Part shown: positions 38,245 to 60,782 of the stretch, piece after piece
Numbering within the stretch: the first letter of the stretch is position 1
How the letters are laid out: every line of letters starts with the position of its first letter
Source: a virus
Length of the DNA stretch: 64,000 nt
IMG/VR virus record: IMGVR_UViG_3300021399_000004
Span: 64,001 to 128,000 of that record
Reading direction: 5' to 3' (one strand)
Made by a program: the position numbers and the translations under genes
Notes under the pieces: model-generated
Told to the model about the DNA's origin: nothing
Seen by the model: only the letters and a program-made list of their open reading frames with translations
Databases searched by the model: none

Positions 38245-38634
38245 TTGAGTATGATGTACATGCTGATTGGTTGGACTGACGGTTTCGGTAACGATGCTTA
38301 CGTGAAGAGCGTCTATCAGACGAGGGAAGAGGCACTCGCGGCGGCGATGCTGGATGATGAGATCCCTGACAAAGTTATTCCGTTTGAGTTTGGAGAAGCG
38401 ATTGATTTTGACTATGATGCGGCGGAAGATCTTGTGGAAAGGAAAGAAGAAATCGACTGGTTGCTTGTGGCTATAAACGCGGTGGATGATGATAAGTTTT
38501 ACTCCTTGCACGAAGAATGGTTTAATACTGGCTGCAATGAAGAAGAGGGAGACGGAGATGACGTTGATAAGTTAATTGCAAATCATAAAGATTGGCTGGA
38601 AGAATACTACAAAGAAAAGGGCGGCAAAATTTAA
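38245..38634 (+). CDS. Highly acidic protein, about 128 aa (DNA-mimic-like composition)
   Basis: SD GGAGG. TTG 38245 or ATG 38251. Asp/Glu-rich throughout. GC hairpin after the stop. Confidence 0.8.
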   Translation: MSMMYMLIGWTDGFGNDAYVKSVYQTREEALAAAMLDDEIPDKVIPFEFGEAIDFDYDAAEDLVERKEEIDWLLVAINAVDDDKFYSLHEEWFNTGCNEEEGDGDDVDKLIANHKDWLEEYYKEKGGKI

Positions 38635-38686
38635 GGGAGGCTATGGCCTCCTGGCCGGCCCGCTTCCAAATAAATTTCTCAAACCT

Positions 38687-38715
38687 CTGACAATCTATCT
38701 CACCTATGTTATAAT
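38687..38715 (+). promoter_or_regulatory. SigA-type promoter
   Basis: CTGACA-17-TATAAT. Confidence 0.6.
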
Positions 38716-38764
38716 GAACATGTTGAAAGCAGAAGGACACTGCTCAAACCGGAAAGGAAAGACT

Positions 38765-38959
38765 ATGGAAAAGAACACTAACTCTCGCAACGGCATCGGT
38801 TTTACTGGCCTGCTTACCATTGCTTTCATTGTGTTGAAGCTGTGCGGCGTGATTACTTGGTCTTGGGTATGGGTTCTGTCTCCGATTTGGATTTCTGTTG
38901 GGATTGCTCTGATTGCTACTGGGCTGCTGGTGATTGTCCATCTTATCCGGAAGCATTGA
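38765..38959 (+). CDS. Two-TM membrane protein, 64 aa
   Basis: SD GGAAAGGAAAG. Internal ATG of track ORF 38576..38959. Confidence 0.75.
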   Translation: MEKNTNSRNGIGFTGLLTIAFIVLKLCGVITWSWVWVLSPIWISVGIALIATGLLVIVHLIRKH

Positions 38960-38974
38960 GCATATGAGTATAAT

Positions 38975-38999
38975 AAAAAAGCCGGTCACCGGCTTTTTA
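38975..38999. terminator. Bidirectional terminator
   Basis: AAAAAGCCGGT-CA-CCGGCTTTTT. Confidence 0.8.
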
Positions 39000-39011
39000 T
39001 TTAGGACGCAT

Positions 39012-39031
39012 TTAGATGTTTAAACATCTAA
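39012..39031. repeat. 20-bp palindrome, copy 2/38
   Basis: Arms exact, centre TTAA. Confidence 0.95.
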
Positions 39032-39075
39032 AATCCTTTATAAAAAAAGTTAGGTTTCCCTAACTTTATAGTTTA

Positions 39076-39330
39076 TTATTTATACAAAAGGCACAGGAAG
39101 TAAACATTGAGGACAACGCTGGAGAGGTGCATGAGCACGTCATTGACGTGCCTGTGCTGCGACAAGTCCTTGCATACACCGAATAGCGCAATCGCAAGGC
39201 CGAACCATGAGACTTGAAGGCCGAAGAGCATAATCAGGACTACATTCAGGATAGTGATTCCGCACCGAAGATCATTCCATTCAAAGCGATACGGCATTGA
39301 AATGCCAAACCAGTTCTTTACTCGCTCCAT
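39076..39330 (-). CDS. Membrane protein, 84 aa
   Basis: Track ORF. ATG overlaps the upstream TAA (TAATG). SD GGAGGA. Confidence 0.8.
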   Translation of the reverse strand: MERVKNWFGISMPYRFEWNDLRCGITILNVVLIMLFGLQVSWFGLAIALFGVCKDLSQHRHVNDVLMHLSSVVLNVYFLCLLYK

Positions 39331-39623
39331 TATTCGTTATCCTCCATCGTGTCCTCGTAGCCGTAAACGTCACCCGCCCAACGGATTTCATCTTCTGCAA
39401 AATCCGTAGGGGCATCGGGATCAACGTCATCCGCGGCAAGCCAGTCTTCCCAAGTGGGGAAGAAGGCGTAGAAATCATCGCACGCTTCAATCGGATCTTC
39501 CATGTGGCACAGATTGCACTGGTCGCAGTAGGGGCAATCGCCATAGGCATTAACAGGGCAGTACACGGGGTCGCCGTTGCGGTAGCCGTCAGTTTCGTAG
39601 TGGTAATCCTTCATCGTGAACAT
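39330..39623 (-). CDS. Acidic Cys-rich protein, 97 aa
   Basis: Internal ATG (MFTMKDY) after GGAAAGGA. Confidence 0.75.
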   Translation of the reverse strand: MFTMKDYHYETDGYRNGDPVYCPVNAYGDCPYCDQCNLCHMEDPIEACDDFYAFFPTWEDWLAADDVDPDAPTDFAEDEIRWAGDVYGYEDTMEDNE

Positions 39624-39663
39624 ATCTGTCAATCCTTTCCGTTCCTCTCTCGGGAACAATGCT

Positions 39664-39692
39664 ATTATAGCATGGAGGTTAGTATTTGTCAA
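39664..39692 (-). promoter_or_regulatory. SigA-type promoter
   Basis: TTGACA-17-TATAAT. Confidence 0.7.
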
Positions 39693-39701
39693 GGGATAGA
39701 A

Positions 39702-39721
39702 TTAGATGTTTAAACATCTAA
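39702..39721. repeat. 20-bp palindrome, copy 3/38
   Basis: Arms exact, centre TTAA. Confidence 0.95.
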
Positions 39722-39758
39722 CCTTGTTTAAGAGAAAAGCCGCCGGGGCGGCGGTATA

Positions 39759-40229
39759 TTAGTCTGTGTTTCGGTCATTAAGGGTAAAAGAAATCTCTGT
39801 CCACCCATCAGAACAATTGCCTAATTCTTTGGTGAAGCCTTCAAGTTCAAACTTATCCATGAGGAAACTTCGCATTTCTCCTCCCCACCAAGCACAATTA
39901 ACTTTCCAAAATCTGCGGTCTTTCAGTTTTAGATATTTCTTTGCAAGTTTAATATTCCAACCAAGGCCGTTGTCATAGAAGTAAAAGGTTTTATTTTCGG
40001 CGTCCCATTCAGAGTTACGAGGAATGTAATAGTTTAGAATTTTAGCCGCACGTTCTTCATTCCAATTCTCTTTGCTGTTAAGCCATACATGAATTTTTTT
40101 AAGCATGAGACTGCCAATCCAAAATGGAAACAGAATTACACGAAGAATCTTGTAACTATTCTTGTTCCACCACTTGCGAATCTTGTGTTCTTTCTTGCCC
40201 CGCATCGCCTTGATAACTTCATTTGTCAT
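39759..40229 (-). CDS. Hypothetical protein with N-terminal TM, 156 aa
   Basis: Track ORF. SD AGAAAGGAAG. GC hairpin at the stop. Confidence 0.85.
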   Translation of the reverse strand: MTNEVIKAMRGKKEHKIRKWWNKNSYKILRVILFPFWIGSLMLKKIHVWLNSKENWNEERAAKILNYYIPRNSEWDAENKTFYFYDNGLGWNIKLAKKYLKLKDRRFWKVNCAWWGGEMRSFLMDKFELEGFTKELGNCSDGWTEISFTLNDRNTD

Positions 40230-40264
40230 AGTGGTTACTTCCTTTCTGTCCTTTGGACAGATTT

Positions 40265-40293
40265 ATTATAGTATAGAATAAAGAGAAAGTCAA
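40265..40293 (-). promoter_or_regulatory. SigA-type promoter
   Basis: TTGACT-17-TATAAT. Confidence 0.7.
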
Positions 40294-40302
40294 GTAGGAA
40301 TA

Positions 40303-40322
40303 TTAGATGTTTAAACATCTAA
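40303..40322. repeat. 20-bp palindrome, copy 4/38
   Basis: Arms exact, centre TTAA. Confidence 0.95.
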
Positions 40323-40364
40323 TGGGCTGGCCAGGTGACGGTATGATCGCCACCTAATACATTT

Positions 40365-40640
40365 TTAGTCTGTTTCCTTCTCATTTCGATGATACAATGT
40401 GTTAATAGTTTTACCTTCAGGAAGAGCGGCCAACCTCTTAATCCGCACATATTGCCAACGGTCATGAAGCAAGATAGCAGATCGGTAATCATAGTAAGTA
40501 GTGATAGTGTCTGTTTTCTGTGAATTGTAGACTAAAACACGTTCATCGTTAGCGAGATATTCATACAGTCCGTTTTCATAATCTACACGACAGAAGTCGG
40601 GTTGATGATAGTACACTTCCTTGCGCTTATGACTTTTCAT
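40365..40640 (-). CDS. Hypothetical protein, 91 aa
   Basis: Track ORF. SD AAGAAAGGGG. Confidence 0.85.
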   Translation of the reverse strand: MKSHKRKEVYYHQPDFCRVDYENGLYEYLANDERVLVYNSQKTDTITTYYDYRSAILLHDRWQYVRIKRLAALPEGKTINTLYHRNEKETD

Positions 40641-40680
40641 ACTTAGTATCCCCTTTCTTGTTCGGAGAGTGTCCTTCTCT

Positions 40681-40770
40681 TTACTTGTTTTTGTTATTCA
40701 TCAGTTGAATGATTGAGCAGACAATGATTGCGACTTGACAGATGACGATGATGACGGTTCTGGTGGTCAT
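40681..40770 (-). CDS. Hydrophobic peptide, 29 aa
   Basis: SD AGAAAGGAAC. ATG to TAA. First ORF after promoter 40812..40840. Confidence 0.5.
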   Translation of the reverse strand: MTTRTVIIVICQVAIIVCSIIQLMNNKNK

Positions 40771-40811
40771 AGTGGCGTTCCTTTCTGTTTCTCTCTTTCA
40801 GGAACAACTGT

Positions 40812-40840
40812 ATTATAGCATAGGTTGTGGCGATTGTCAA
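40812..40840 (-). promoter_or_regulatory. SigA-type promoter
   Basis: TTGACA-17-TATAAT. Confidence 0.7.
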
Positions 40841-40849
40841 GAGTTTTTT

Positions 40850-41005
40850 TCAAACTGCGCGCCATTCTCCTGTATTTGCGTCTTTAATAAATTCAACCGC
40901 AGGAATATAAATGTAGTTATCTTCGATGATTTCATATTCGGGGAAAGCATTGGGATTGGTTTCAAGAGTGTTATTGATGAAGGTGATGATTTCTTCGCGC
41001 GTCAT
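40850..41005 (-). CDS. Hypothetical protein, 51 aa
   Basis: Conserved leader plus SD AGAAAGGGG. ATG to TGA. Below the track cutoff. Confidence 0.65.
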   Translation of the reverse strand: MTREEIITFINNTLETNPNAFPEYEIIEDNYIYIPAVEFIKDANTGEWRAV

Positions 41006-41053
41006 TTGGTTCCCCTTTCTGGTTTATGGTGTTTTCCTTCACCTTTCAATGAT

Positions 41054-41082
41054 AGTATATCATAAGATACATTTTTTGTCAA
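41054..41082 (-). promoter_or_regulatory. SigA-type promoter
   Basis: TTGACA-17-TATACT. Confidence 0.7.
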
Positions 41083-41119
41083 GGGGTTTTGAAAATTTTT
41101 TGGCGGGCCGGTCTGTAGG

Positions 41120-41139
41120 TTAGATGTTCAAACATCTAA
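41120..41139. repeat. 20-bp palindrome, copy 5/38
   Basis: Arms exact, centre TCAA. Confidence 0.95.
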
Positions 41140-41187
41140 ATTGGTTCCGGTTAAGCGTGTCTAACTCTTGCATAAAAGAAAAGCCCC

Positions 41188-42198
41188 TTAGTAGGGGCAG
41201 ACGGTGTTTGTGTATTCAGCAAGGCGGTGAAGTTTGTTAATAAGACTTGCGCAATAGTTGCTAATGGTGTCACTTTCCATTTTTGCGTCAAGGTAGGCAG
41301 AAATTGCGTTATAGACCGTTTCGCACTCTTCCATTTTAGGGGTTTTGCGGCGAGTGACAAAATCTACGGTGTCGCCAAGATCACGGAATGGGAAATATTT
41401 GATACCAATTGATACGGCGTGACGCTTTGCAATGCGGGAAAGAATATAAGTTTCAATAATGGCATCGTCCAGGGCTGTGTGACTCTCTATGAAATCATAT
41501 TTGTTACAGAGATATTGATAAGTAGTTTCGGCGCTGGTCTTGAAATAAGTTCCGGAGGCGGTCAGTAGGCCATGTTTGAGGCACTCGGTTTTATAGGTGG
41601 CATTATTCAGAAGATGAGAAGTAGCAAGCCCCCAAAGGTCAAAGAGCGGATAGGTTTCGCCGCGGAAAGTGAAGGCGTCCGGGTTAAAGTCTTTGTCAGA
41701 ATCTTTCTTGTAGGGTTCATTCGCAATCTTCCGGCAGAGATTTTTTTGAATCTGTTCCCACTTCTGATAGTCGGGGCTGTACAGTTTGCGAATATACAAT
41801 TCAGTGAACGGGATGGCCTTCTTAAAGTCAAACATTGCGTTAAAGGCTCCAACAGCGTCAACTTTGTGCAAGTCGTTAATGAAAATTTCCATGACCGTAT
41901 CCCACGGGGCAAGAACGGTTTCTTTATTTTCCAGCATTGCCAGATACCGAGGGCGCTTTTCCGCATAATAGGCGGTATTGAATACGGCGGGAACGGCGAA
42001 CGTTTCGGCAATCAGAAATTGCTTGTTTTCCAGAATATCGCCCTGCCGGTTAGTAATAGTCCAGCCAATATCGTAAATGAGCGGCCTTGCAATAGCGATC
42101 TTCTTCTTCTTTTCGGGATCACCGTCGGCAATTTCAGAGGCGAACGGGAGGGTAGCGGTTTCGGTATCGACAACCATGTACAGACGGCGCTTGCTCAT
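41188..42198 (-). CDS. DEDDh (DnaQ-like) 3'-5' exonuclease, 336 aa
   Basis: Exo motifs VVDTETA, AFNAMFDF and HTALDDAIIE. Paralog of 50141..50902. Confidence 0.85.
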   Translation of the reverse strand: MSKRRLYMVVDTETATLPFASEIADGDPEKKKKIAIARPLIYDIGWTITNRQGDILENKQFLIAETFAVPAVFNTAYYAEKRPRYLAMLENKETVLAPWDTVMEIFINDLHKVDAVGAFNAMFDFKKAIPFTELYIRKLYSPDYQKWEQIQKNLCRKIANEPYKKDSDKDFNPDAFTFRGETYPLFDLWGLATSHLLNNATYKTECLKHGLLTASGTYFKTSAETTYQYLCNKYDFIESHTALDDAIIETYILSRIAKRHAVSIGIKYFPFRDLGDTVDFVTRRKTPKMEECETVYNAISAYLDAKMESDTISNYCASLINKLHRLAEYTNTVCPY

Positions 42199-42249
42199 AC
42201 GGCAGAAGTCCTTTCCGGTTTGAAGTGTTTTCCTTCACTTGATGGGTAC

Positions 42250-42278
42250 AGTATAACATAAGCGGTGATAAAAGTCAA
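42250..42278 (-). promoter_or_regulatory. SigA-type promoter
   Basis: TTGACT-17-TATACT. Confidence 0.7.
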
Positions 42279-42308
42279 TAGGGAAATTTGATGGGCATAG
42301 CCGTATTA

Positions 42309-42328
42309 TTAGATGTTCAAACATCTAA
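42309..42328. repeat. 20-bp palindrome, copy 6/38 (between divergent promoters)
   Basis: Arms exact, centre TCAA. Confidence 0.95.
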
Positions 42329-42357
42329 AAATGTTGAAGGAAAATTAAAAATATGGA

Positions 42358-42385
42358 TTGACTTTTTTATAAAGTCGAGTATAAT
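42358..42385 (+). promoter_or_regulatory. SigA-type promoter
   Basis: TTGACT-16-TATAAT. Confidence 0.65.
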
Positions 42386-42411
42386 ATAATTGTACCAAGA
42401 GAAAGGAGCCA

Positions 42412-42921
42412 ATGAAGATGACTGATTACAAGCAGGAAGCCCGTAAATTTTTGAAAGAATTTTCTCCTGCGTTAGAAAACTATAATGGTTCACTGACGTA
42501 TATGTGGCAGAAAGCCAAAGAATATAATAAAGGTAGAACGAAAATAAATCAAATTGTTTGTAGAAATGGTGCTACTCGGATAGCTCTTATCGGCAAGGAT
42601 TTTGTTGTAAAGATGGATTATGATGCTGATGATGATATAAAAATGTTTGGTGGATGCGGGAAAGAATACGCTTTGTATAGAAAATGTGTTCGTGAAAATT
42701 CGCCTTATTTGCATTGTTTATTGGAAATTGCTAAAATTAAAGTAGGCAATCATTTCTATTACATCATGCCAAAAGCAAACTATTGCGGGCATACTTCCTT
42801 CTTAAATTTCAATTGTGAAGAAAGAAACTGGCTGTATAGTCATGTAAATGATTTACATAATGGAAATATTGGAAAATATAACGGTAAACCTGTGGTTATT
42901 GATTATGCCTGTCAGTTCTGA
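42412..42921 (+). CDS. Hypothetical protein, 169 aa, with kinase-like DLHNGN...VIDYA motif
   Basis: Track ORF. SD GAAAGGAG. Hairpin GCCTGTCAG-TT-CTGACAGGC at the stop. Confidence 0.8.
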   Translation: MKMTDYKQEARKFLKEFSPALENYNGSLTYMWQKAKEYNKGRTKINQIVCRNGATRIALIGKDFVVKMDYDADDDIKMFGGCGKEYALYRKCVRENSPYLHCLLEIAKIKVGNHFYYIMPKANYCGHTSFLNFNCEERNWLYSHVNDLHNGNIGKYNGKPVVIDYACQF

Positions 42922-42944
42922 CAGGCATTTTCATTATTTGTAGA

Positions 42945-42964
42945 TTAGATGTTTGAACATCTAA
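42945..42964. repeat. 20-bp palindrome, copy 7/38
   Basis: Arms exact, centre TTGA. Confidence 0.95.
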
Positions 42965-43007
42965 CCTCTCTGGAAAAAAAGAAAAGCGGCCGAAGCCGCT
43001 TTAAGTG

Positions 43008-43340
43008 TTAGCCCTTCACCGTGTAGGTGTTGGGCTTGCCCTCGGTCTTGACAAGCTCGTCAGCCCACAGGCGGGTAATGGCGTACTGCACATTGCCACG
43101 GGTTACGCCGGTGGGCAGGTCATTCTGGCAAGCCTCGTAAACCTCGCTAACCGTCAGCGACACAGGAGTGGACTTGAACACGTTGAACACAATGTCCTTC
43201 ATAGTCGTATACATGTCGGACTTGGCAGCCTTGACCTCGGCGCCACGGTTCAGCTCCTTGTCAACGGCGGCAAGCAGCTCGGTCTGATCGGGCATGGTAG
43301 ACAGGATGTTGCGGATAGCAGTCAGAGAAGCCTTCGTCAT
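43008..43340 (-). CDS. wHTH-like protein, paralog family member 1 of 3, 110 aa
   Basis: Track ORF, alignable with 46723..47061 and 49632..49976 (LT..E.Y......LP.G.T.G...Y..TR.W.DE). Confidence 0.85.
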   Translation of the reverse strand: MTKASLTAIRNILSTMPDQTELLAAVDKELNRGAEVKAAKSDMYTTMKDIVFNVFKSTPVSLTVSEVYEACQNDLPTGVTRGNVQYAITRLWADELVKTEGKPNTYTVKG

Positions 43341-43408
43341 ATGGATACCCTTTCTGGTTTGTGGGGTTTTCCTTCCCCTGTTTTGTTGTTGTCCCTTGGG
43401 ACACTCTT

Positions 43409-43437
43409 ATTGTACCACACTTTAGTGTGCTTGTCAA
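43409..43437 (-). promoter_or_regulatory. SigA-type promoter
   Basis: TTGACA-17-TACAAT. Confidence 0.65.
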
Positions 43438-43439
43438 GG

Positions 43440-43512
43440 GAGTTTGGAAACTTTTTTTGAGTTTCAACTACGACCTTGCAACGGTGGTGTGGCTTGGAGT
43501 TCCCTCCTGACA
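43440..43512 (-). ncRNA. Candidate short non-coding transcript or long leader from an orphan promoter
   Basis: Promoter 43519..43547 has no ORF before the next promoter. Its 5' end AAATACTGTCAGGAGGGAA is shared with the unit at 47145..47249. Contains hairpin GAAACT-N7-AGTTTC. Confidence 0.3.
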
Positions 43513-43518
43513 GTATTT

Positions 43519-43547
43519 ATTATAGCAAAGGTTTAAGAAAAAGTCAA
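43519..43547 (-). promoter_or_regulatory. SigA-type promoter (orphan, no ORF)
   Basis: TTGACT-17-TATAAT. Confidence 0.65.
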
Positions 43548-43566
43548 GCAGACTCTTTTTAATGCT

Positions 43567-43586
43567 TTAGATGTTTAAACATCTAA
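43567..43586. repeat. 20-bp palindrome, copy 8/38
   Basis: Arms exact, centre TTAA. Confidence 0.95.
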
Positions 43587-43602
43587 AATGGCTGGGAGGG
43601 CG

Positions 43603-43815
43603 TTAGCCCTCCCCAATAATAGCCTCAACCAGAGGATGCCACGTCTTGATATGAGTCACAATCTGTACATCATCAGGATCAATGAAGCCACCGCAACAGC
43701 CGCAGATAATGGTCTGAATTTCATCGCCCTTGTAGATAGCGATACCCGCAATCTCCTGCCGCAATTCGGCAGGCACAGTCAAGTCGTAGAAGGTAATTTG
43801 TTCAGTGTACATCAT
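43603..43815 (-). CDS. Hypothetical protein, 70 aa
   Basis: Track ORF. SD GAGGAGGA. Hairpin GGGAGGGC-GTTA-GCCCTCCC at the stop. Confidence 0.8.
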   Translation of the reverse strand: MMYTEQITFYDLTVPAELRQEIAGIAIYKGDEIQTIICGCCGGFIDPDDVQIVTHIKTWHPLVEAIIGEG

Positions 43816-43817
43816 AA

Positions 43818-44003
43818 TTAGTCATCCTCCTCTACAATGTAGTCCATCTCAATCAGGTGCTTGGTCGTGGCGGAGTAGGTCAGGAACTGAATGGTGTTGC
43901 CCATGTACAGGCAGATCTGCCAGTAGTCGTCACGCTTGACCTCAATGAAGTTGGTCTTGGGGTTATTCAGAAGGGCATGAATCATGTTTTCGTATTCGGT
44001 CAT
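43818..44003 (-). CDS. Hypothetical protein, 61 aa
   Basis: Track ORF. SD AAAGGAG. Confidence 0.8.
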   Translation of the reverse strand: MTEYENMIHALLNNPKTNFIEVKRDDYWQICLYMGNTIQFLTYSATTKHLIEMDYIVEEDD

Positions 44004-44051
44004 CGTGAATCTCCTTTGGTTTGGTGGGTGTCCTTCCCTTGGTACGGTCTT

Positions 44052-44080
44052 ATTATACCATAGCGGGATTTTATTGTCAA
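44052..44080 (-). promoter_or_regulatory. SigA-type promoter
   Basis: TTGACA-17-TATAAT. Confidence 0.7.
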
Positions 44081-44108
44081 GAGATATATGCAGGAAAGTT
44101 AAAGAATA

Positions 44109-54960: not shown

Positions 54961-54976
54961 CAACGTTGGTGGGCCG

Positions 54977-55102
54977 TTAGGCCCACCGCATCAATTCATC
55001 AAATTCCTCAAAAGTCATGGGGTCGTCCTCATCAGTATTCGCCTGATACTCCCAGAACAGATAGATCTGCTCCGCGTCGGTCAGTTCATCCCAATTAATC
55101 AT
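54977..55102 (-). CDS. Hypothetical acidic protein, 41 aa
   Basis: SD GAAGGAG. Hairpin GGTGGGCC-GTTA-GGCCCACC at the stop. Confidence 0.6.
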   Translation of the reverse strand: MINWDELTDAEQIYLFWEYQANTDEDDPMTFEEFDELMRWA

Positions 55103-55149
55103 TTTTGTTTTCTCCTTCGTTTCTTTATTTTGTCCCTCCGGACAAGTAT

Positions 55150-55178
55150 AGTATACTGTATGTTCAATAAAAAGTCAA
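55150..55178 (-). promoter_or_regulatory. SigA-type promoter
   Basis: TTGACT-17-TATACT. Confidence 0.7.
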
Positions 55179-55196
55179 CATGAATTTTTCAGAGGA

Positions 55197-55216
55197 TTAG
55201 ATGTTTAAACATCTAA
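55197..55216. repeat. 20-bp palindrome, copy 32/38
   Basis: Arms exact, centre TTAA. Confidence 0.95.
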
Positions 55217-55331
55217 CTTTTGAAAAAAACGATGATAAGTTTCTTTGCTATTTTTTTACCGATAAGTCATGCGGAAGAAATAGCAGAAAGTACTGCCTGA
55301 TTTGATAGAAAAGTCATCACATTCAAATCTA

Positions 55332-55499
55332 TTAAATAATTATTCTAGCTTGTCGGTGTCCAGCTGGCGCCCAGCTGGTGTCCAGCTGGCTGGCCCGTAG
55401 GGCGCGAGTTGCGCCGCGGCGAGCCTCAAAAAATTTATAGGTAACTATGATAAACAGATCTTCTTGATTCTCTTTTTTAGGTGGTAGTTGGAGAGACAT
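55332..55499 (-). CDS. Questionable ORF, 55 aa, containing the CAGCTG repeat block
   Basis: SD GGAGGGG and ATG to TAA. The GC-rich repeat inside it may be a DNA or RNA element rather than coding sequence. Confidence 0.3.
   Translation of the reverse strand: MSLQLPPKKENQEDLFIIVTYKFFEARRGATRALRASQLDTSWAPAGHRQARIII
55361..55388. repeat. Three CAGCTG cores phased at exactly 11 bp (GTCCAGCTGG-like units)
   Basis: Cores at 55361-66, 55372-77 and 55383-88. Confidence 0.85.
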
Positions 55500-55517
55500 T
55501 GCCCCTCCAATGATGAT

Positions 55518-55546
55518 AGTATACTACATTACACGTTCATTGTCAA
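55518..55546 (-). promoter_or_regulatory. SigA-type promoter
   Basis: TTGACA-17-TATACT. Confidence 0.7.
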
Positions 55547-55564
55547 TCATGATAGCGTGGATAA

Positions 55565-55584
55565 TTAGATGTTCAAACATCTAA
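55565..55584. repeat. 20-bp palindrome, copy 33/38
   Basis: Arms exact, centre TCAA. Confidence 0.95.
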
Positions 55585-55602
55585 CTACCATGGGCATCCG
55601 GA

Positions 55603-55622
55603 CATCTAACTACTGTTAGATG
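55603..55622. repeat. Everted half-site pair CATCTAAC-TACT-GTTAGATG
   Basis: The same half-sites as the 20-bp palindrome, in swapped order. Confidence 0.8.
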
Positions 55623-55653
55623 CGAAAAAAGGGGGGGCTTGCGCCCCTCCTTT

Positions 55654-55965
55654 TTACTTCATTGTTTTGAACCAGTAGTTTTCATTGGTGTTCCAGTAGT
55701 GCAGGCGGCACAGTCGGCTGTTCCAGCTCTTAACAATAGCGTCCGGCGGGCAATCCGTCAAGTGGCGGCTCAGCCCTTCACCGCAGGCAATCTCAACCTT
55801 GAGATAGAACCCTTCGGCGGTCTTACCCTCCCGCGTGATCTTTACCATGGGAGTGGCGCCGCGCCCGCCCTTCAAGTAGTAGTGGCGCGCGGTCTTTTCC
55901 AGCAGGCGAACCATGGTCAGCAGGTTGAAGTAGTCGGGAGCGAAGACGGCGATCAGAATCATCAT
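55654..55965 (-). CDS. Hypothetical protein, 103 aa (paralog of 59744..60055)
   Basis: SD GGAGGTG before the internal ATG. The C-terminus HYWNTNENYWFKT matches HAWNTNDDYWYET. Confidence 0.8.
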   Translation of the reverse strand: MMILIAVFAPDYFNLLTMVRLLEKTARHYYLKGGRGATPMVKITREGKTAEGFYLKVEIACGEGLSRHLTDCPPDAIVKSWNSRLCRLHYWNTNENYWFKTMK

Positions 55966-56011
55966 GATGGACACCTCCAAATTTTTTTCTGTTCCCCCTT
56001 GGAACAATTGT

Positions 56012-56040
56012 ATTATAGCATACATCATTCATCCTGTCAA
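56012..56040 (-). promoter_or_regulatory. SigA-type promoter
   Basis: TTGACA-17-TATAAT. Confidence 0.7.
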
Positions 56041-56069
56041 CCCCTATTTTACATCTAAAAATGCATTAG

Positions 56070-56089
56070 TTAGATGTTGAAACATCTAA
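56070..56089. repeat. 20-bp palindrome, copy 34/38
   Basis: Arms exact, centre TGAA. Confidence 0.95.
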
Positions 56090-56428
56090 TTACTGTTTAA
56101 GGATTTAACTAATATTTAAACATCTAACTAATATTTAAACATTTAAGAATAAAATTCATCGCTGGAAGAGTTGATTAAAAACTGTAAAATAAAGTCAAGC
56201 GCGCAAAAATTATAATAGTTAAGTTCGTCAAATAAGGTCTTAATTTCACTTATTATGGCACAGATTTTAAAATAGAATGCGATGGCTACTGGTAGATAGG
56301 TGTAATAAAAAGATTTCCTTGATAATATATTTTTCTAACTGTGGGTGCTATCTTGGAAATGATATTATATTATAGTTTACAATTATTGTTAATTGAGTTT
56401 TGGGAAAATTAAATATGTTAAGATTAGA

Positions 56429-56448
56429 TTAGATGTCTAAACATCTAA
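56429..56448. repeat. 20-bp palindrome, copy 35/38
   Basis: Arms exact, centre CTAA. Confidence 0.95.
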
Positions 56449-56690
56449 CATGAAATAGTTAAATGTTGTAAAATTTTATATTAGTTGAGGGGGAAATGAA
56501 TGATATTTAAAATTAATAAAATATTATATAGATATGGGAATTGATTATTTGAAAATTTTTATTCCAAATAAAATAGCATTGAAAATGAAATATGCCCAGC
56601 TCGCATATAATTATAAAAATAATATTTTTTCTTCGGTCGATGCAAGCAGTTGGCGATAACAAAATATAATAATAAATGATAATAATAATT

Positions 56691-56719
56691 ATTATACCAC
56701 ATTTTGGGATAAAAGTCAA
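56691..56719 (-). promoter_or_regulatory. SigA-type promoter without a downstream gene
   Basis: TTGACT-17-TATAAT. Confidence 0.55.
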
Positions 56720-56727
56720 GAGACTAA

Positions 56728-56747
56728 TTAGATGTTAAAACATCTAA
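56728..56747. repeat. 20-bp palindrome, copy 36/38
   Basis: Arms exact, centre TAAA. Confidence 0.95.
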
Positions 56748-56926
56748 CTTGAAAATGAAATTGTAGGATTTTAAATTAGGAATTTTTATAATTTTATTTG
56801 AATAATAATTTAAAATAAAATTATGTTATTTTGCCAGCTCGCATTATTATGTTTATAGGAAAACATTCTTCGTTAATAATATTAAGTATCTGATATGAAA
56901 AGAAAATAAAATTAAAGATATTATTT

Positions 56927-56955
56927 ATTATACCACGTTTCAGGAAAAAAGTCAA
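56927..56955 (-). promoter_or_regulatory. SigA-type promoter without a downstream gene
   Basis: TTGACT-17-TATAAT. Confidence 0.55.
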
Positions 56956-56963
56956 GTCTTAAA

Positions 56964-56983
56964 TTAGATGTTTAAACATCTAA
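56964..56983. repeat. 20-bp palindrome, copy 37/38
   Basis: Arms exact, centre TTAA. Confidence 0.95.
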
Positions 56984-57182
56984 CTTGGAAATGAAATAAG
57001 ACTGTTATGGGAGAAAATTTTTTATATATTCAACTTATATATTTTGTCTATTTAAAAATAAAATAATAATGTAATTAAAATAATACGAGCTTCAGCTTGC
57101 ATATCATTTCGGGTTTTACTCTTGCTTTCGTGGATCAATGATAACATTTGAAAACTAAATTGAAATCAAAAAGTAATTATCT

Positions 57183-57211
57183 ATTATACCATATTTTGGG
57201 AAAAAAGTCAA
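57183..57211 (-). promoter_or_regulatory. SigA-type promoter without a downstream gene
   Basis: TTGACT-17-TATAAT. Confidence 0.55.
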
Positions 57212-57219
57212 CCTTAAAA

Positions 57220-57239
57220 TTAGATGTTCAAACATCTAA
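57220..57239. repeat. 20-bp palindrome, copy 38/38
   Basis: Arms exact, centre TCAA. Confidence 0.95.
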
Positions 57240-58145
57240 CTTCAAAATGAAATAACATCTAACTAAATATTTAAACATCTAACTAGACATATAAATATTA
57301 AAATAATTTAAAACTGCTTTAAGAATTTTAGGATTATGGCAAATGAAAAGAACATTCCAAAATAAAATAGTGATTGAAATGAAATTAACATTTAATATTT
57401 GGGATTTTTATTATTTAATTTTATCTAAGAGAAAAAATAGTGCTAGAAAATAAAATTATATTAAATTTTTAGAGTAAAAATTATTTCAAAGACATCTAAC
57501 AAGGCAGATGTATTATGGGATCTATAGTTGTAATATTTTGTTATATAAAAATATTACAATTAAATTTCAAATTGATAGAATTTAAAGAGTGCTTTCAGTT
57601 TTATTTTTAAAATATAATTATGGGTTTTGGTCTGTTTAAAAATATATTAATAAAAATAAAATAAAATGAAATGAAATTAAATCATGATTAATTAAAGTTG
57701 TATACTATTTAATTTATTATATAGAATTTATACTTCATTTTAAATTTAGAAGTTTTAGGACTACTATTATAAAATAAAATGAATAGAAAAAATAAATAAA
57801 ACAAAACGAAATTAGAATTAATTTTAAAATACTAATTTACATTATAATATTGGGATTTAAAAGATAGCATATTAGTTATAATTTTTAAATATTTTATAAA
57901 ATGAAATTGTAAAAATTTAGTTTTGGGTTTTTTCTTTTTCTTTTTTTAATTCTAAAAAATATTTAAAAATAAAAATGAAATTATAGGATTAAGCAAAAGG
58001 TTTAAAATAATTATTTTTTTATAGTTTTTAAAAATGAAATTGTGTTTTGGGATTTAGCATTTTTTTTATAATCTTAATAAAAATAATAAAAATAAAATAA
58101 AATTACTTTACTATGTTTTGATTTAACTATACATTATTTTACTGT

Positions 58146-58515
58146 ATATTATATATACACATATATGTATATACATATGTATATATGTATATATGTATAT
58201 ATGTATATGTATATGTATATATGTATTATATGTATATATGTATGTATATATGTATACATATATGTGTATATGTGTATATATATGTATATGTATATATGTA
58301 TATGTATATATGTATATATGTATGCATGCATTATATGTATATGTATATGTATATGTATATATAGACTTGTATAAATATATGTATATACATATAAATATAT
58401 TTGTACATACATGTATATATAAGTATATTTAATTATATGTATATATTTATGTATACTTACATCTAACTATGTATAAATGCATAAAAAGATCTATATGTAT
58501 ATATGTATAAATATA
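58146..58515. repeat. Degenerate (TATATGTA/TATACA)n microsatellite-like array
   Basis: Almost pure TA/TG alternation. The track ORFs here are low-complexity artefacts. Confidence 0.85.
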
Positions 58516-58588
58516 AATAATTATCAATATTTTTATTTATTTATATGTAAGGAATGAATAAATATATTAATAATCATAAACAATATAC

Positions 58589-58625
<37 letters not shown>

Positions 58626-59157
58626 TCTTTTATTGTAAAATCTATCATTATTATAAAGCGACAAATATTATAATGTTTATTATAAATATTAATATTACTT
58701 ATTATATTTTGATTATTTAATTTATTTTAATTAGCAGCTGCGAAAATTTTATTAATAATATATTATTATCGCTGATCTATTTATCTCTTGTTCATTAATA
58801 TATTATAATAACTCACGTGCCTGACACTGGCTATGTATAAAGTTAAGAAACTTTTCCATAAAGGCGCCCTTCCTACATAGTTCTTTGAAGAAGAAGAAGA
58901 TGAATAACTAAATAATCTTAACATCTAAAAAGATACATCTAAAAATTCTGAGTTTGTTTAGCTCTTTTATTTATAAACATAAAGTAGCTTGCTCTTTTGG
59001 ATATAAATGTAATGTGGCTTATCGGTTATTGTTAGATGTGTTAAAAATTATATGATGGTTATTTTTCAGCTCGTTTTTAGATCATTTTTTATTGCGACTT
59101 TATTCAACTGTATATGCACACATCTAAATAATGAGTTAGAAGAACCATACAAAAAGT

Positions 59158-59181
59158 CCCTCTGCCCGGCGGGGCAGAGGG
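59158..59181 (-). terminator. Rho-independent terminator of the GC-rich operon
   Basis: Stem CCCTCTGCCC / GGGCAGAGGG, followed by ACTTTTTG on the - strand. Confidence 0.7.
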
Positions 59182-59196
59182 TGGAAGGGAAGGGGC

Positions 59197-59400
59197 TCAC
59201 CCCTTCCTGCAGCAGAAGTGAGTGGTCACGGGGTAGAGCCGCATGATATGCTTAACGATTTCGTAGGTGCCGCGGTAGGACGTCTCGTCATTGACTTCCC
59301 ACTCTTCACCGGTTTCAACGACGCGGAGGCGGTAACCGAGGCAGAGGTAGTTGGTGGCAGTGGCATAGTCGCCATGGGAAATCTTGAATTCCTTCATCAT
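59197..59400 (-). CDS. Hypothetical protein, 67 aa
   Basis: SD GAAAGGAAGG before ATG ATG (MMKEFK), in frame with track ORF 59197..59616. Confidence 0.75.
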   Translation of the reverse strand: MMKEFKISHGDYATATNYLCLGYRLRVVETGEEWEVNDETSYRGTYEIVKHIMRLYPVTTHFCCRKG

Positions 59401-59434
59401 TGTATGTACCTTCCTTTCATTTGATGGGTCGGGC

Positions 59435-59457
59435 GGGGAGGGGGTGTGCCCCTCCCC
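59435..59457 (-). other. GC-rich stem-loop between genes, GGGGAGGGG-N5-CCCCTCCCC
   Basis: One of a family of near-identical hairpins. No U tract. Confidence 0.7.
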
Positions 59458-59464
59458 GTTCGTC

Positions 59465-59683
59465 TTACCACAACCACTGGCGGATTTCCTGCATGATGCC
59501 GCGGTTCCAGTTGCGGCGGTCTTCGAAGTAGAACCCGCGCGCCTCGGGGTAGTGTTCGCGCGCCTTGCTGTACTTGCGCTCCTTCCACAGGTCAAGTTCG
59601 TCTTCGTCGAGGTCAAGGTTCAAGGTGTAGCGGTCGATCTCGATCTCGTCGCCGCACTCGTCAATCATAATCAGTACCATCAT
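59465..59683 (-). CDS. Acidic protein, 72 aa
   Basis: Track ORF. SD AAAGGAGGA. Confidence 0.8.
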   Translation of the reverse strand: MMVLIMIDECGDEIEIDRYTLNLDLDEDELDLWKERKYSKAREHYPEARGFYFEDRRNWNRGIMQEIRQWLW

Positions 59684-59712
59684 TTTTGTATCCTCCTTTT
59701 TTGTGGTGGGGA

Positions 59713-59734
59713 GGGGAGGGCTTGCGCCCTCCCC
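59713..59734 (-). other. GC-rich stem-loop between genes, GGGGAGGGC-TTGC-GCCCTCCCC
   Basis: Hairpin family member. Confidence 0.7.
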
Positions 59735-59743
59735 CGAGGGGCT

Positions 59744-60055
59744 TTACTCGGCTTTGGTCTCGTACCAGTAATCGTCGTTGGTGTTCCAGGCGTGGAACTT
59801 GTGCAACCACTCATTGTTCCAGAACTTGATCACGTCCTTGTAGTTCCAGTAACCGCGGTACCACGCATACAGGTGGGTGGTGTAGGTGAAGGAAACGGTG
59901 GCGGTGTAACCGGTGCTGTCCTTCGCGTCGCCCTCGAAGCGGAGGGTCAGCGGGCGGCGGTCGGTGTAGAAGAAGGAGCAAGCGGTGGCGAGCCAGCGGA
60001 GCATGTTGATCAGGTCGGTGTAGCAGGGGGCATGGACGGTGATGGTGCACTTCAT
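59744..60055 (-). CDS. Hypothetical protein, 103 aa (paralog of 55654..55965)
   Basis: Track ORF. SD GAAAGGAG. Confidence 0.8.
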   Translation of the reverse strand: MKCTITVHAPCYTDLINMLRWLATACSFFYTDRRPLTLRFEGDAKDSTGYTATVSFTYTTHLYAWYRGYWNYKDVIKFWNNEWLHKFHAWNTNDDYWYETKAE

Positions 60056-60096
60056 GGTGTTTTCTCCTTTCGTGGTTGAAGAGATTTGAGGTGGGT

Positions 60097-60118
60097 GGGG
60101 AGGGCTCGCGCCCTCCCC
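60097..60118 (-). other. GC-rich stem-loop between genes, GGGGAGGGC-TCGC-GCCCTCCCC
   Basis: Hairpin family member. Confidence 0.7.
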
Positions 60119-60125
60119 GTGGGAA

Positions 60126-60782
60126 TTACCCCAGCAGGTTGTACGGGTTCTCAGCGATCCAGCGGGTCTTGGCCGGGGCCTTGGGGTTGAGCCAGTTCTG
60201 AATGGACATCGTGGTGGTGCCCTTGCTGCTCACCTTGAAGGTGTCCGTGCGGAACCAGTAGAGGGGGTCGCCCTTGGCCCGAGGGAACTCGGCGAGCCAG
60301 TCCATCCAGTCGCACCAGCGGGCGAGGACGAACACATCGTTGGCGGGGTTGAACACGACCAGCAGGGACGTCCGGGCGGCGAAGTTGTTGACGAGCGCCT
60401 CCGGGGAAGGCAGGACCCCGTGATAGGTCAACCACGTCCCGCCGCCGCTCTTGCACTCGACCGGACGACCTTCCCAGTACAGGTCGGTCTTGCCCTGCGA
60501 GCGGGGGAACAGGTCGCCCCAGTGGCAGGTGGTGGCCTTGCGCCAGTACAGGCGCAGCATCGCCTCGGCCGTCTTGCCGCCCCGGCCCCAGTCCGCGGTG
60601 TTCCACAGACCGCTGACCCAATTGATGGCGGGCATCCACAGGTCGCGGGGCACGATGGTCTTGTTGAAGTCGAGGCCCTGTTCGGCCAGCCACTCCCACG
60701 CCTTGCCACCGCACAGGTCGGCGGGCAGGGTGGACTGCAGAGTGGCGAGAATCTCGGGGGTCAGGCGGGTGATCATGGACAT
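60126..60782 (-). CDS. Hypothetical Trp-rich protein, 218 aa
   Basis: SD AAAGGAGG before the internal ATG (MSMITRL) of track ORF 60126..60974. Upstream there is an extended -10, TGCTATACT. Confidence 0.8.
   Translation of the reverse strand: MSMITRLTPEILATLQSTLPADLCGGKAWEWLAEQGLDFNKTIVPRDLWMPAINWVSGLWNTADWGRGGKTAEAMLRLYWRKATTCHWGDLFPRSQGKTDLYWEGRPVECKSGGGTWLTYHGVLPSPEALVNNFAARTSLLVVFNPANDVFVLARWCDWMDWLAEFPRAKGDPLYWFRTDTFKVSSKGTTTMSIQNWLNPKAPAKTRWIAENPYNLLG

Follow-up and report, generated by a model that had tools for sequence, protein, structure and literature searches.

The stretch of phage DNA analysed here (64,000 nt, hereafter the window) raises the question of why a genome that uses TAG as a sense codon should carry a long block of genes in which this codon never occurs. 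The window comes from a sheep-rumen phage of ~130-140 kb that uses genetic code 15. This phage is a large siphovirus of Firmicutes whose head genes are of the SPbeta type. In the genes flanking the block, TAG is a sense codon for glutamine. PHROG and Pfam matches span TAG positions in the tail protein, the endolysin and the helicase. When the endolysin is aligned with its counterparts from the related loci L021 and L023, TAG stands opposite Q in six columns, and the motif GVGMS(Q)AG contains TAG in all three sequences. A DUF551 gene has TAG at a position where the L021 orthologue has Q, and two TAG positions fall within a paralogue alignment. No suppressor tRNA, RF2 or GlnRS was found in the window, in ~12 kb of extra flank or in the relatives' loci.

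An absence of TAG could be an artefact, since ORFs called in the standard code are TAG-free by definition and a GC-richer stretch will contain fewer TAG by chance. The open-frame search behind the first-pass annotation was indeed circular in this way, and the GC content of the island is above that of its flanks (45% in the array genes described below, with a GC3 of 0.53, vs 38% and 0.26 in TAG-using genes), as that annotation had stated. We called genes across the window with our own ORF and codon-score caller, recognising no stops other than TAA and TGA, so that TAG is visible in frame either as sense or as stop and the count is not circular. Among the 94 genes called, none terminates in TAG. 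The array (38251-55965) comprises 40 genes and 4,099 codons without a single in-frame TAG, and four GC-rich genes on the minus strand (59197-60782; 460 codons) also have none. These 44 genes (4,559 codons) match the roughly 44 ORFs and 4,000-4,500 codons of the first-pass annotation, and their products are identical under code 11 and with TAG read as glutamine. They end in 36 TAA, 8 TGA and no TAG. The avoidance of TAG stops had been presented as special to the island, but given that it extends to all 94 genes it characterises the window as a whole.

Plus-strand genes that use TAG (tail, lysis, helicase and packaging) contain 98 TAG in 8,336 codons (1.18%). At this rate, ~53 would be expected in the island, and the probability of finding none is ~1e-23. 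By codon-position base frequencies, the array should hold 70 TAG and the GC-rich genes 10, whereas both have none. Outside the reading frame, TAG is plentiful: the array genes have 33 in the +1 and 27 in the +2 frame, and the 5.5 kb of array intergenic DNA has 75 on the minus and 117 on the plus strand. Intergenic TAG is thus as abundant as previously noted, although the palindromes to which it had been attributed supply only part of it (34 per strand). The array gaps were also scanned for credible ORFs with a terminal TAG, and none was found. With TAA/TGA-only calls, composition and off-frame counts all against it, the artefact reading was rejected and retains almost no probability; TAG avoidance in the island is confined to coding sequence, and within it to the frame that is read.

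The array genes are listed below with strand, length and stop codon; all have 0 in-frame TAG.

38251-38634, plus strand, 127 aa, TAA; after the palindrome at 38135 and promoter TTGACA-17-TATACT (38174-38202)
38765-38959, plus strand, 64-aa membrane peptide, TGA; promoter 38687-38715; orthologues in 7 relatives
39076-39330, minus strand, 84 aa, TAA; L010 and L013 orthologues terminate in TAG
39330-39623, minus strand, 97 aa, TAA
39759-40229, minus strand, 156 aa, TAA
40365-40640, minus strand, 91 aa, TAA
40681-40770, minus strand, tentative gene, 29-aa hydrophobic peptide, TAA; perfect promoter 40840-40812
40850-41005, minus strand, 51 aa, TGA
41188-42198, minus strand, 336 aa, TAA; phrog_20187 match; resembles Enterococcus phage genes, one annotated exodeoxyribonuclease
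42412-42921, plus strand, 169 aa, TGA; same inverted orientation kept in relatives
43008-43340, minus strand, 110 aa, TAA; tandem promoters, long leader
43603-43815, minus strand, 70 aa, TAA
43818-44003, minus strand, 61 aa, TAA
44144-44434, minus strand, 96 aa, TAA
44548-44940, minus strand, 130 aa, TAA
45094-46146, minus strand, 350 aa, TAA; C-terminal part PcfJ-like
46275-46562, minus strand, 95 aa, TAA
46723-47061, minus strand, 112 aa, TAA; tandem promoters, long leader
47327-47518, minus strand, 63 aa, TAA
47569-47757, minus strand, 62 aa, TAA
47903-48211, minus strand, 102 aa, TAA
48330-48767, minus strand, 145 aa, TGA; 5'-deoxyribonucleotidase-like (NT5C, phrog_2643)
48920-49285, minus strand, 121 aa, TAA
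49356-49505, minus strand, 49 aa, TGA
49632-49976, minus strand, 114 aa, TAA
50141-50902, minus strand, 253 aa, TAA; paralogue of 41188-42198 (phrog_20187)
51036-51233, minus strand, 65 aa, TAA
51450-51686, minus strand, 78 aa, TAA
51829-52134, minus strand, 101 aa, TAA
52271-52549, minus strand, 92 aa, TGA
52707-52886, minus strand, 59 aa, TAA
53062-53364, minus strand, 100 aa, TAA
53509-53700, minus strand, 63 aa, TAA
53825-53980, minus strand, 51 aa, TAA
54111-54272, minus strand, 53 aa, TAA
54427-54591, minus strand, 54 aa, TAA; unit inspected in full
54708-54851, minus strand, 47 aa, TGA; unit inspected in full
54977-55102, minus strand, 41 aa, TAA; unit inspected in full
55332-55499, minus strand, 55 aa, TAA; start with SD
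55654-55965, minus strand, 103 aa, TAA; last unit with an ORF

Each ORF runs from an SD-preceded ATG to 11-48 nt before the next terminator or palindrome. A longer call at 55332-55580, which contains one TAG, was rejected because the TAG lies upstream of the SD-bearing start. All but three of the genes (38251-38634, 38765-38959 and 42412-42921) are on the minus strand. For about half of the ORFs, homologues could not be detected in the relatives' loci examined, and their coding status was judged from the SD, the codon score and the architecture of the unit.

That architecture is nearly uniform. Several units were inspected base by base, and almost every one consists of a palindrome, a TTGACA-17-TATAAT promoter, a short leader hairpin, an SD, a small ORF and a GC-rich terminator hairpin; the unit of 50141-50902, inspected whole, shows the palindrome, TTGACA-17-TATAAT, SD, ORF and terminator hairpin in succession. 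The palindromes are:

38135-57239, no strand assigned, 20-bp palindrome TTAGATGTTnnAACATCTAA in 38 identical copies, absent from the rest of the window
Starts of copies 1-13: 38135, 39012, 39702, 40303, 41120, 42309, 42945, 43567, 44109, 44509, 45042, 46242, 46661
Starts of copies 14-26: 47293, 47842, 48298, 48867, 49570, 50097, 50993, 51389, 51781, 52221, 52646, 52951, 53457
Starts of copies 27-38: 53778, 54066, 54379, 54677, 54941, 55197, 55565, 56070, 56429, 56728, 56964, 57220

No convincing ORF is present in the final four palindrome units (56.1-57.2 kb). Of the 52 near-consensus sigma-A promoters in the window, 39 are in the array, and shuffled sequences give ~11 per window; 12 sites match at 12/12 positions and ~20 more at 11/12. 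Terminator-like hairpins number 51, vs 16.7 expected. The tail and lysis block (1-24.4 kb) has no sigma-A promoters above chance. Measured from the centre of the palindrome, the -35 boxes cluster at distances of 17-19, 27-29, 38-40 and 46-49 bp, a period of 10-10.5 bp (Rayleigh p ~1e-10). A palindrome common to all units points to a co-regulated set, and it looks like an operator.

An operator could also belong to a lysogenic circuit. The array might be a set of moron-like units expressed from a prophage, either under a master repressor or switched on in the lysogen. They would remain in the standard code because a lysogenic cell makes no suppressor, and the palindrome would then serve a lysogeny repressor as its operator, just as SPBRE serves MrpR in SPbeta. 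The units do have the promoter, gene and terminator of morons, a single operator-like palindrome with ~10-bp phasing precedes all 38 of them, and the head genes (YonB, YonD, YonG) are of the type found in SPbeta, which is temperate. MrpR binds SPBRE sites at early promoters (PMC10516654), and in recoded prophages the integrases are free of in-frame stops (Borges, bioRxiv 10.1101/2021.08.26.457843). However, the window contains no recognisable integrase, recombinase or repressor, and 38 consensus promoters with one operator resemble a jointly switched set rather than constitutive lysogeny genes. We consider the prophage reading unlikely, and it overlaps with early expression in any case, as repressed promoters would still fire first upon induction.

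The first-pass annotation also called for a comparison with related phages. Using the 336-aa array protein (41188-42198), we found seven relatives in IMG/VR at 65-83% identity. All carry the same hairpin-plus-promoter array, and their ~21,900 array codons contain no TAG within credible gene bodies; each of the six in-frame TAGs counted is either a terminal stop or part of a marginal 32-45-aa call. The helicase genes adjoining these arrays contain 9-14 TAG. Three array genes in the relatives terminate in TAG, which is workable only if TAG still acts as a stop at the time of their translation.

These relatives also bear on the origin of the block. It could be a foreign module from a standard-code phage or bacterium, lacking TAG by descent rather than through selection on timing, and its codon usage is indeed strongly unlike that found elsewhere in the genome (GC3 0.53 vs 0.26). 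Yet the array is TAG-free beside TAG-rich genes in all seven diverged relatives, with orthologues 34-90% identical and another GC3 (0.41-0.46), indicating a long-standing state that is maintained. TAG stops would also be expected to come with a standard-code source. Enterococcus phage H1, a standard-code relative with the same type of array, has TAG at 5/35 stops (~14%), whereas there are none here; that such a relative shares the array type indicates that the array is ancestral to the lineage. For the array, we regard a foreign origin as quite improbable, even more so than the prophage reading.

The foreign reading is probably right for the four GC-rich genes, which are without the palindrome and have a combined GC of 61% and GC3 of 0.89:

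59197-59400, minus strand, 67 aa, TGA, 0 TAG
59465-59683, minus strand, 72 aa, TAA, 0 TAG
59744-60055, minus strand, 103 aa, TAA, 0 TAG
60126-60782, minus strand, 218 aa, TAA, 0 TAG

A search of the 60126-60782 protein against 5.8 billion proteins returned only itself, and the four genes have no homologues except themselves. They are probably a recent insertion from a high-GC standard-code source, and their lack of TAG probably stems in part from this origin rather than from membership of the same regulon. Lacking the palindrome and having a foreign composition, they may lie outside the array's temporal class.

The surrounding modules differ in how much TAG they contain:

1-24383, plus strand, tail-fibre, tail and endolysin genes with TAG at full density
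24424-35677, minus strand, TAG-poor operon of ~32 small overlapping genes, 8 TAG in 3,348 codons, in 6 genes
36367-37788, plus strand, helicase-like gene (ResIII) on the left flank, 8 in-frame TAG, perfect TTGACA-17-TATAAT at 36334
61133-62428, plus strand, right-flank gene of 431 aa, 3 in-frame TAG, perfect sigma-A promoter at 61077, followed by packaging and head genes (62520-63335 and onward)

The flanks had been described as rich in TAG, which is true of the plus-strand genes but not of the left-adjoining minus-strand operon. This operon has sigma-A promoters at 35737, 33129, 29744 and 26003 and no palindromes. TAG density is thus graded, from 0% in the array through 0.24% in the sigma-A-driven operon to 1.18% in the other genes (Fisher p of 1e-3 and 1e-7 for the two steps). 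The helicase and the right-flank gene contain TAG despite perfect sigma-A promoters, so the classes cannot be told apart by promoter type alone, and early transcription by itself does not predict the absence of TAG. A model based on early genes therefore needs an added assumption, either translational gating or initial repression.

In our view, the array is probably an immediate-early module that is kept free of TAG for translation by the unmodified host, while later genes tolerate the codon. The 40 small genes at 38.1-56 kb, almost each a separate transcription unit, would be transcribed by host RNA polymerase from their consensus sigma-A promoters. They would be translated while RF1 still stops at TAG and suppressor tRNA(CUA) is not yet present, and we propose that selection under these conditions keeps TAG out of frame. 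TAG stops would have been lost genome-wide because the suppressor, once present, would cause readthrough at them. The outcome would be a block that reads alike in both codes. In later genes, TAG would be tolerated or would serve to gate translation, with few in the operon at 24.4-35.7 kb and ~1.2% of codons in the presumably later helicase, packaging, tail and lysis genes. Expression before a suppressor acts had been suggested at the outset, and all the indirect evidence gathered supports it; from this we infer the timing of expression, as well as the existence and timing of the suppressor. GC3 falls in the same order (0.53 for the putative early genes, 0.40 for the middle operon, 0.26 for the late genes), and the higher value of the early genes suggests that their codon usage is adapted to the tRNAs of the host.

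Both the phenomenon, in which the first-expressed genes are kept readable in the standard code, and a corresponding model have already been published (Borges 2021, bioRxiv 10.1101/2021.08.26.457843; Yutin 2021, PMC7886860). The phage studied here, a large siphovirus of Firmicutes with head genes of the SPbeta type, is a very clean member of this group.

Read in the standard code, three plus-strand regions (1-24.4, 36.4-37.8 and 61.1-64 kb) fall into short ORFs, each closed by TAG; once TAG is taken as a sense codon, the fragments join into long genes, the longest encoding 2,110 aa. Among the products are tail fibres and a tail protein (phrog_5302, E=4e-56), together with an endolysin and a ResIII-type helicase; for the tail protein, endolysin and helicase, the PHROG/Pfam profile matches continue over the TAG positions. 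When the endolysin was aligned with two orthologues from related IMG/VR loci (L021 and L023), glutamine stood opposite TAG in six columns, and the SpoIID-type motif GVGMS(Q)AG carried TAG in all three sequences. TAG likewise faces the Q of the L021 orthologue in the DUF551 gene. These endolysin and DUF551 alignments show that the phage reads TAG as glutamine (code 15).

A sheep-rumen data set contains the same genome, both as an ENA scaffold (129 kb) and as a Logan contig (140.5 kb). The sequence just past the window's right edge encodes TerS, TerL, portal and a YonB-like capsid protein, with precomputed Pfam matches to YonB, YonD_N and YonG_N. TerL is 32-35% identical to that of Geobacillus virus E3, Bacillus phages, the Enterococcus H1/VRE9 group and Brevibacillus phage Sundance, whose terL match carries the annotation YonF. 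Judging from these genes, the phage is a large rumen siphovirus of Firmicutes whose head genes are of the SPbeta type. When 48 kb of its sequence in the window were compared by megablast with 50,697 phage records, no match appeared. We also considered phAss-1 (PMC10607447) as a member of the same group, but it is probably not close, being absent among the tblastn matches listed for three query proteins.

TAG in genes to the right of the window
L017 (flank of the window's own genome, within 1178-8395), TerL: 8 TAG
L017 (within 1178-8395), portal: 9 TAG
L017 (within 1178-8395), scaffold-like gene: 4 TAG
L017 (within 1178-8395), YonB-like major capsid gene: 0 TAG in 355 codons

Among late genes, the one expressed most highly, for the YonB-like major capsid protein, may thus avoid TAG.

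The first-pass annotation had claimed that about 44 ORFs in two GC-richer stretches use TAG neither as sense codon nor as stop. To count TAG, genes were called with TAA and TGA as the only stops, because standard-code ORFs hold no TAG by construction; calls were scored by codon log-odds, Shine-Dalgarno (SD) sequence and start codon, and then curated. The claim proved accurate in both coordinates and numbers. The 44 genes (hereafter the island) contain no TAG in 4,559 codons, and close in 36 TAA and 8 TGA.

Gene blocks and their in-frame TAG codons
38251-55965, mostly minus strand: array of 40 small genes, 4,099 codons, 0 TAG
59197-60782, minus strand: four GC-rich genes, 460 codons, 0 TAG
24424-35677, minus strand: TAG-poor operon of ~32 small overlapping genes; 8 TAG in 3,348 codons (0.24%), in six genes

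Array ORFs start at an SD-preceded ATG a few tens of nt past the -10 box and end 11-48 nt ahead of the next terminator or palindrome, so none is truncated; a screen of the array gaps for a credible ORF closing in TAG found none. Base frequencies at each codon position predict 70 in-frame TAGs in the array and 10 in the GC-rich genes, against zero observed, and the other two sense frames of the array genes hold 33 and 27. TAG is also plentiful between the array genes, as the first-pass annotation had it: 5.5 kb of intergenic DNA holds 75 on the minus and 117 on the plus strand, 34 per strand being supplied by the palindromes. The window's TAG-using genes contain 98 TAGs in 8,336 codons (1.18%), a rate at which ~53 would be expected in the island (P of zero ~1e-23). 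The absence of TAG is real and highly non-random. The TAA/TGA-only calling, the expected counts and the off-frame and intergenic TAGs exclude the possibility that it merely reflects how ORFs were defined, or base composition. We also ruled out that TAG is avoided to prevent stray operator half-sites, the avoidance being frame-specific.

Stop codons tell a different story. No gene in the window ends in TAG (0/94), whether on the plus strand (0/18), in the operon (0/32) or in the island (0/44); at the stop rate of Enterococcus phage H1 (5/35 TAG), 0/44 has P ~1e-3. Avoidance of TAG as a stop belongs to the recoded genome as a whole and is no special feature of the island. As had been described, GC content is higher in the island (array genes 45% GC and GC3 0.53, vs 38% and 0.26 in TAG-using genes). 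The description of the flanks as TAG-rich holds for the plus-strand genes (1.18%) but not for the operon (0.24%).

The array carries 38 identical copies of a 20-bp palindrome, TTAGATGTTnnAACATCTAA, between 38135 and 57239, and the palindrome is absent elsewhere in the window. Under the standard code it closes every reading frame, on either strand. Several units were read base by base and follow the order palindrome, promoter, leader hairpin, SD, ORF, terminator, next palindrome. The promoter consists of TTGACA, a 17-nt spacer and TATAAT, frequently with an extended TG; a short leader hairpin, AGGAGG and ATG open a small ORF, and its stop frequently lies within or just 5' of a GC-rich hairpin that ends in a run rich in T. 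All but three genes, which are on the plus strand, are encoded on the minus strand. Twelve promoters match the consensus at 12/12 positions and ~20 more at 11/12, and terminator-like hairpins number 51 (16.7 expected). The window has 52 near-consensus sigma-A promoters, 39 in the array and four in the 24-36 kb operon; single ones precede the helicase gene and the gene at 61133-62428, and matches in the tail/lysis block are at chance level. Tandem promoters occur in two units, at 43341-43566 and 47062-47292: downstream of the first promoter come a conserved start, AAATACTGTCAGGAGGGAA, and ~110 nt free of ORFs, and then the second promoter. Several array genes have in common a leader hairpin and then ACCAGAAAGG ahead of the start codon. 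Integron-type gene cassettes were rejected as an explanation: almost every unit has its own consensus promoter and terminator, no integrase was recognised, and instead of an attC site the repeat is an identical 20-bp palindrome upstream of the promoter.

The centre of the palindrome lies 17-19, 27-29, 38-40 or 46-49 bp from the -35 box, that is, in helical-turn steps (Rayleigh p ~1e-10). In seven relatives, this distance is constant at 18.5 bp, and the palindrome arms are kept among them although the central 3-4 bases differ. Spacing by helical turns is what marks a protein-binding site that acts on RNA polymerase from a single face of the helix; it does not mark a mere terminator. We infer that the palindrome is the operator of a common, putatively dimeric regulator.

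Searches of Pfam and PHROG with the array and GC-rich proteins found almost no function. Two array paralogues match phrog_20187 and resemble an Enterococcus phage H1 gene annotated as exodeoxyribonuclease; other array proteins are PcfJ-like (one), 5'-deoxyribonucleotidase-like (one) or small membrane peptides (several). Bacillus phage SPO1, a Herelleviridae myovirus with the standard code, has a host-takeover module, a dense cluster of some two dozen small early genes without a known function, driven from several strong sigma-A promoters; its genes are in operons rather than single-gene units, and are not known to share a palindrome.

Using the 336-aa array protein as a query, we found seven IMG/VR contigs with 65-83% identity, some of them 141-167 kb long. 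The PcfJ-like gene as a query found no related loci, and an exact palindrome search of IMG/VR returned only nine single chance hits. All seven relatives have an array of the same kind, in which TTAGATGT and ACATCTAA form the palindrome arms, the centre varies, and the promoter that comes next is the one seen in the window. Their arrays (~21,900 codons) contain no TAG within a credible gene body, the six in-frame TAGs counted being terminal stops or in marginal calls of 32-45 aa, and the adjoining helicase genes carry 9-14. Twenty-one array genes have an orthologue in the relatives, at 34-90% identity, and so the TAG-free state is old and maintained. This conservation contradicts a foreign origin of the whole array, as does its loss of every TAG stop. 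GC3 in the relatives differs as in the window (0.41-0.46 vs 0.23-0.42), which suggests that early genes may be tuned to host tRNAs.

Three of ~208 array genes in the relatives close in TAG:

L010, 14142-14390 (or 14396): array gene with the stop TAG-TTT-TAA
L013, 13388-13648 (or 13717): array gene in which readthrough adds 22 residues, through the palindrome
L012, 273-764: array gene in which readthrough adds 37 residues, through the palindrome

In the window, the gene orthologous to those of L010 and L013 (39076-39330) stops in TAA. Genes of this kind would be expected if the array is translated at a time when TAG still terminates. Enterococcus phage H1 has a run of small genes without a known function too, each behind its own TTGACA-17-TATAAT, with no 20-bp palindrome. 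Given this comparable array in a standard-code phage, the array type is ancestral, and recoding was superimposed on it.

The last four palindrome units (56.1-57.2 kb) lie in DNA of 17-20% GC with no credible ORF. This DNA belongs to 3 kb of non-coding sequence of the same composition (56090-59150), in which repeats of the TATATG/TATACA type occupy 58.1-58.5 kb and a run of (ATT)n lies near 58.6 kb. Palindrome-plus-promoter units at 57220, 56964 and 56728 have no ORF, and their AT-rich transcripts have ATGCGAGCTGG in common. Such units may specify small RNAs, or the stretch may be an origin or genome-end region. It adjoins, at 17% GC, a stretch of 61% GC and GC3 0.89 (59150-61080) with four ORFs that have strong SDs, GC hairpins in between, no palindrome and at most an extended -10 promoter. 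Among 5.8 billion proteins, homologues of their products (the largest of 218 aa) were found only in the same phage. Three of the four stops are TAA, unusual at such GC. The four genes have the appearance of foreign DNA inserted recently; that they lack TAG is by itself weak evidence, because 460 codons would hold only ~5 at the late rate.

The operon is sparse in TAG rather than free of it. Its TAGs are located at 27.3-28.1 and 31.4-34.2 kb, three of them in a 66-aa HTH-like gene (33559-33759), and its genes encode many zinc ribbons, DUF551 and DUF5662 proteins, a dCMP-deaminase-like protein and HAD_SAK_2. At least three of the operon's eight TAGs are certainly sense codons, since glutamine replaces one in an orthologue and an alignment of paralogues spans two. 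Use of TGA as sense, under which the ORFs are slightly longer, was ruled out: the small genes, with their ATGA overlaps, are complete in the standard code. In relatives located via the DUF5662 gene, operon TAG is equally sparse and the converging endolysin has 5-7. The genome has three TAG classes (0%, 0.24% and 1.18%), separated at Fisher p 1e-3 for the first step and 1e-7 for the second. Between the divergent sigma-A promoters at 35737 (-) and 36334 (+), the intergenic DNA at 35750-36330 has tracts rich in G (GGGAGGGGAGGGGATGGCGGG...), inverted repeats rich in GC (CGCTTCGCTAGCAAGCGCTAACGCGCTTGCGTCGCTTCGC) and runs of (TATA)n, and is a candidate replication origin. Between the helicase gene and the first palindrome (37800-38110) there are short direct repeats, GCTGGATAAGCTGGA and GTAGTGAAAATCG, in 2-3 copies each.

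No suppressor tRNA, release factor or GlnRS was found in ~76 kb of the genome (the window and its flanks L017 and L019) or in 62 related loci. Searches for tRNA genes and Rfam families found none in the window, the long leaders at 43341-43566 and 47062-47292 and the AT-rich units contain nothing tRNA-like, and a CUA tRNA is absent from all 62 related loci scanned. A 93-nt tRNA-Ser(UGA) lies inside the early array of three relatives (L010 4138-4230, L011 5629-5721, L015 9321-9413), with no counterpart in the window.

It has been proposed that recoded phages express early genes in the host code before a suppressor arises (Yutin 2021, PMC7886860; Borges 2021, bioRxiv 10.1101/2021.08.26.457843). 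Early and regulatory genes are standard-code-compatible in crAss-like, Lak, Agate, Jade and Garnet phages (PMC7886860; bioRxiv 10.1101/2021.08.26.457843), and PMC7886860 cites Ivanova 2014 for such genes in recoded phages. This model is also the best-supported reading here: the array genes would be translated first, in the host code, and TAG-containing genes would be fully translated after the suppressor appears. The expectation that the island is expressed first, before a suppressor acts, is supported by converging, if indirect, evidence. As in those phages (PMC7886860), TAG encodes glutamine in late structural and lysis genes, in-frame stops affect part of the genes, one block is stop-free, and TAG is not a terminator. 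Unlike them, our phage is a 130-140 kb Firmicutes siphovirus with SPbeta-type head genes, found in the rumen; its TAG-free block matches exactly the set with one palindrome and a single-gene consensus sigma-A promoter, it has a 0.24% class, and GC3 differs two-fold between classes. The phenomenon is already known, and this phage is a particularly clean new member from the SPbeta-type-head lineage. What is new is that the code-neutral class is bounded by an independent mark (palindrome plus single-gene sigma-A promoters), and that an intermediate TAG class also exists.

SPbeta has ~10 SPBRE sites with a 15-bp motif, bound by the master repressor MrpR (YopR) (PMC10516654). Like our phage, it is a large Firmicutes siphovirus with a short repeat at the promoters of many early units, and our head genes match the YonB, YonD and YonG families. 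However, SPbeta uses the standard code, and its few sites contrast with 38 perfect 20-bp palindromes in a recoded genome, among whose products no MrpR-like protein was recognised. By analogy with SPBRE held by MrpR (PMC10516654), the array could be a prophage or moron region held by a lysogeny repressor at the palindrome, although this overlaps with the main explanation and we consider it improbable. The Enterococcus H1/EF1/VRE9 group (OP534061) resembles our phage in genome size, the 336-aa protein (27% identical) and TerL (32%). Unlike our phage, it uses the standard code (5/35 stops of that region are TAG), and in place of the 20-bp palindrome has short hairpins overlapping the -35 box.

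The helicase gene and 61133-62428 both contain TAG, yet each stands behind a perfect sigma-A promoter, and we hypothesise translational gating, with mRNA made early and full protein only post-switch. Perhaps, and we put this forward tentatively, graded TAG density acts as a translational timer laid over host-polymerase transcription, together with helicase gating, a GC3 hand-over and the palindrome operator. Across the window, TAG rises from 0% in the 38-promoter palindrome regulon to 0.24% in a sigma-A operon that would be delayed-early, and to 1.2-1.7% in the helicase, packaging, tail and lysis genes. Helicase-type genes would be transcribed at once, but their full translation would wait for suppressor tRNA to build up; a switch from the host to the phage tRNA pool would be reflected in the two-fold GC3 difference, and the phased palindrome would be the operator for a putative master regulator of the code-neutral set.

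The published code-switch proposal drew mainly on the functional classes of genes. In the present phage, function is not needed to define the code-neutral set: an operator-like palindrome and single-gene consensus sigma-A promoters suffice, and this definition coincides exactly with the TAG-free one for 40 genes, and again in seven relatives. The coincidence yields a sharp, testable prediction for time-resolved transcriptomics and proteomics, and the array is a natural promoter/operator set for building reporters. For annotation, such genomes require the code to be handled block by block, and hundreds of small early genes are called correctly only if TAG is treated consistently. These findings extend TAG-to-glutamine recoding to large Firmicutes siphoviruses, a group whose cultured members keep the standard code.
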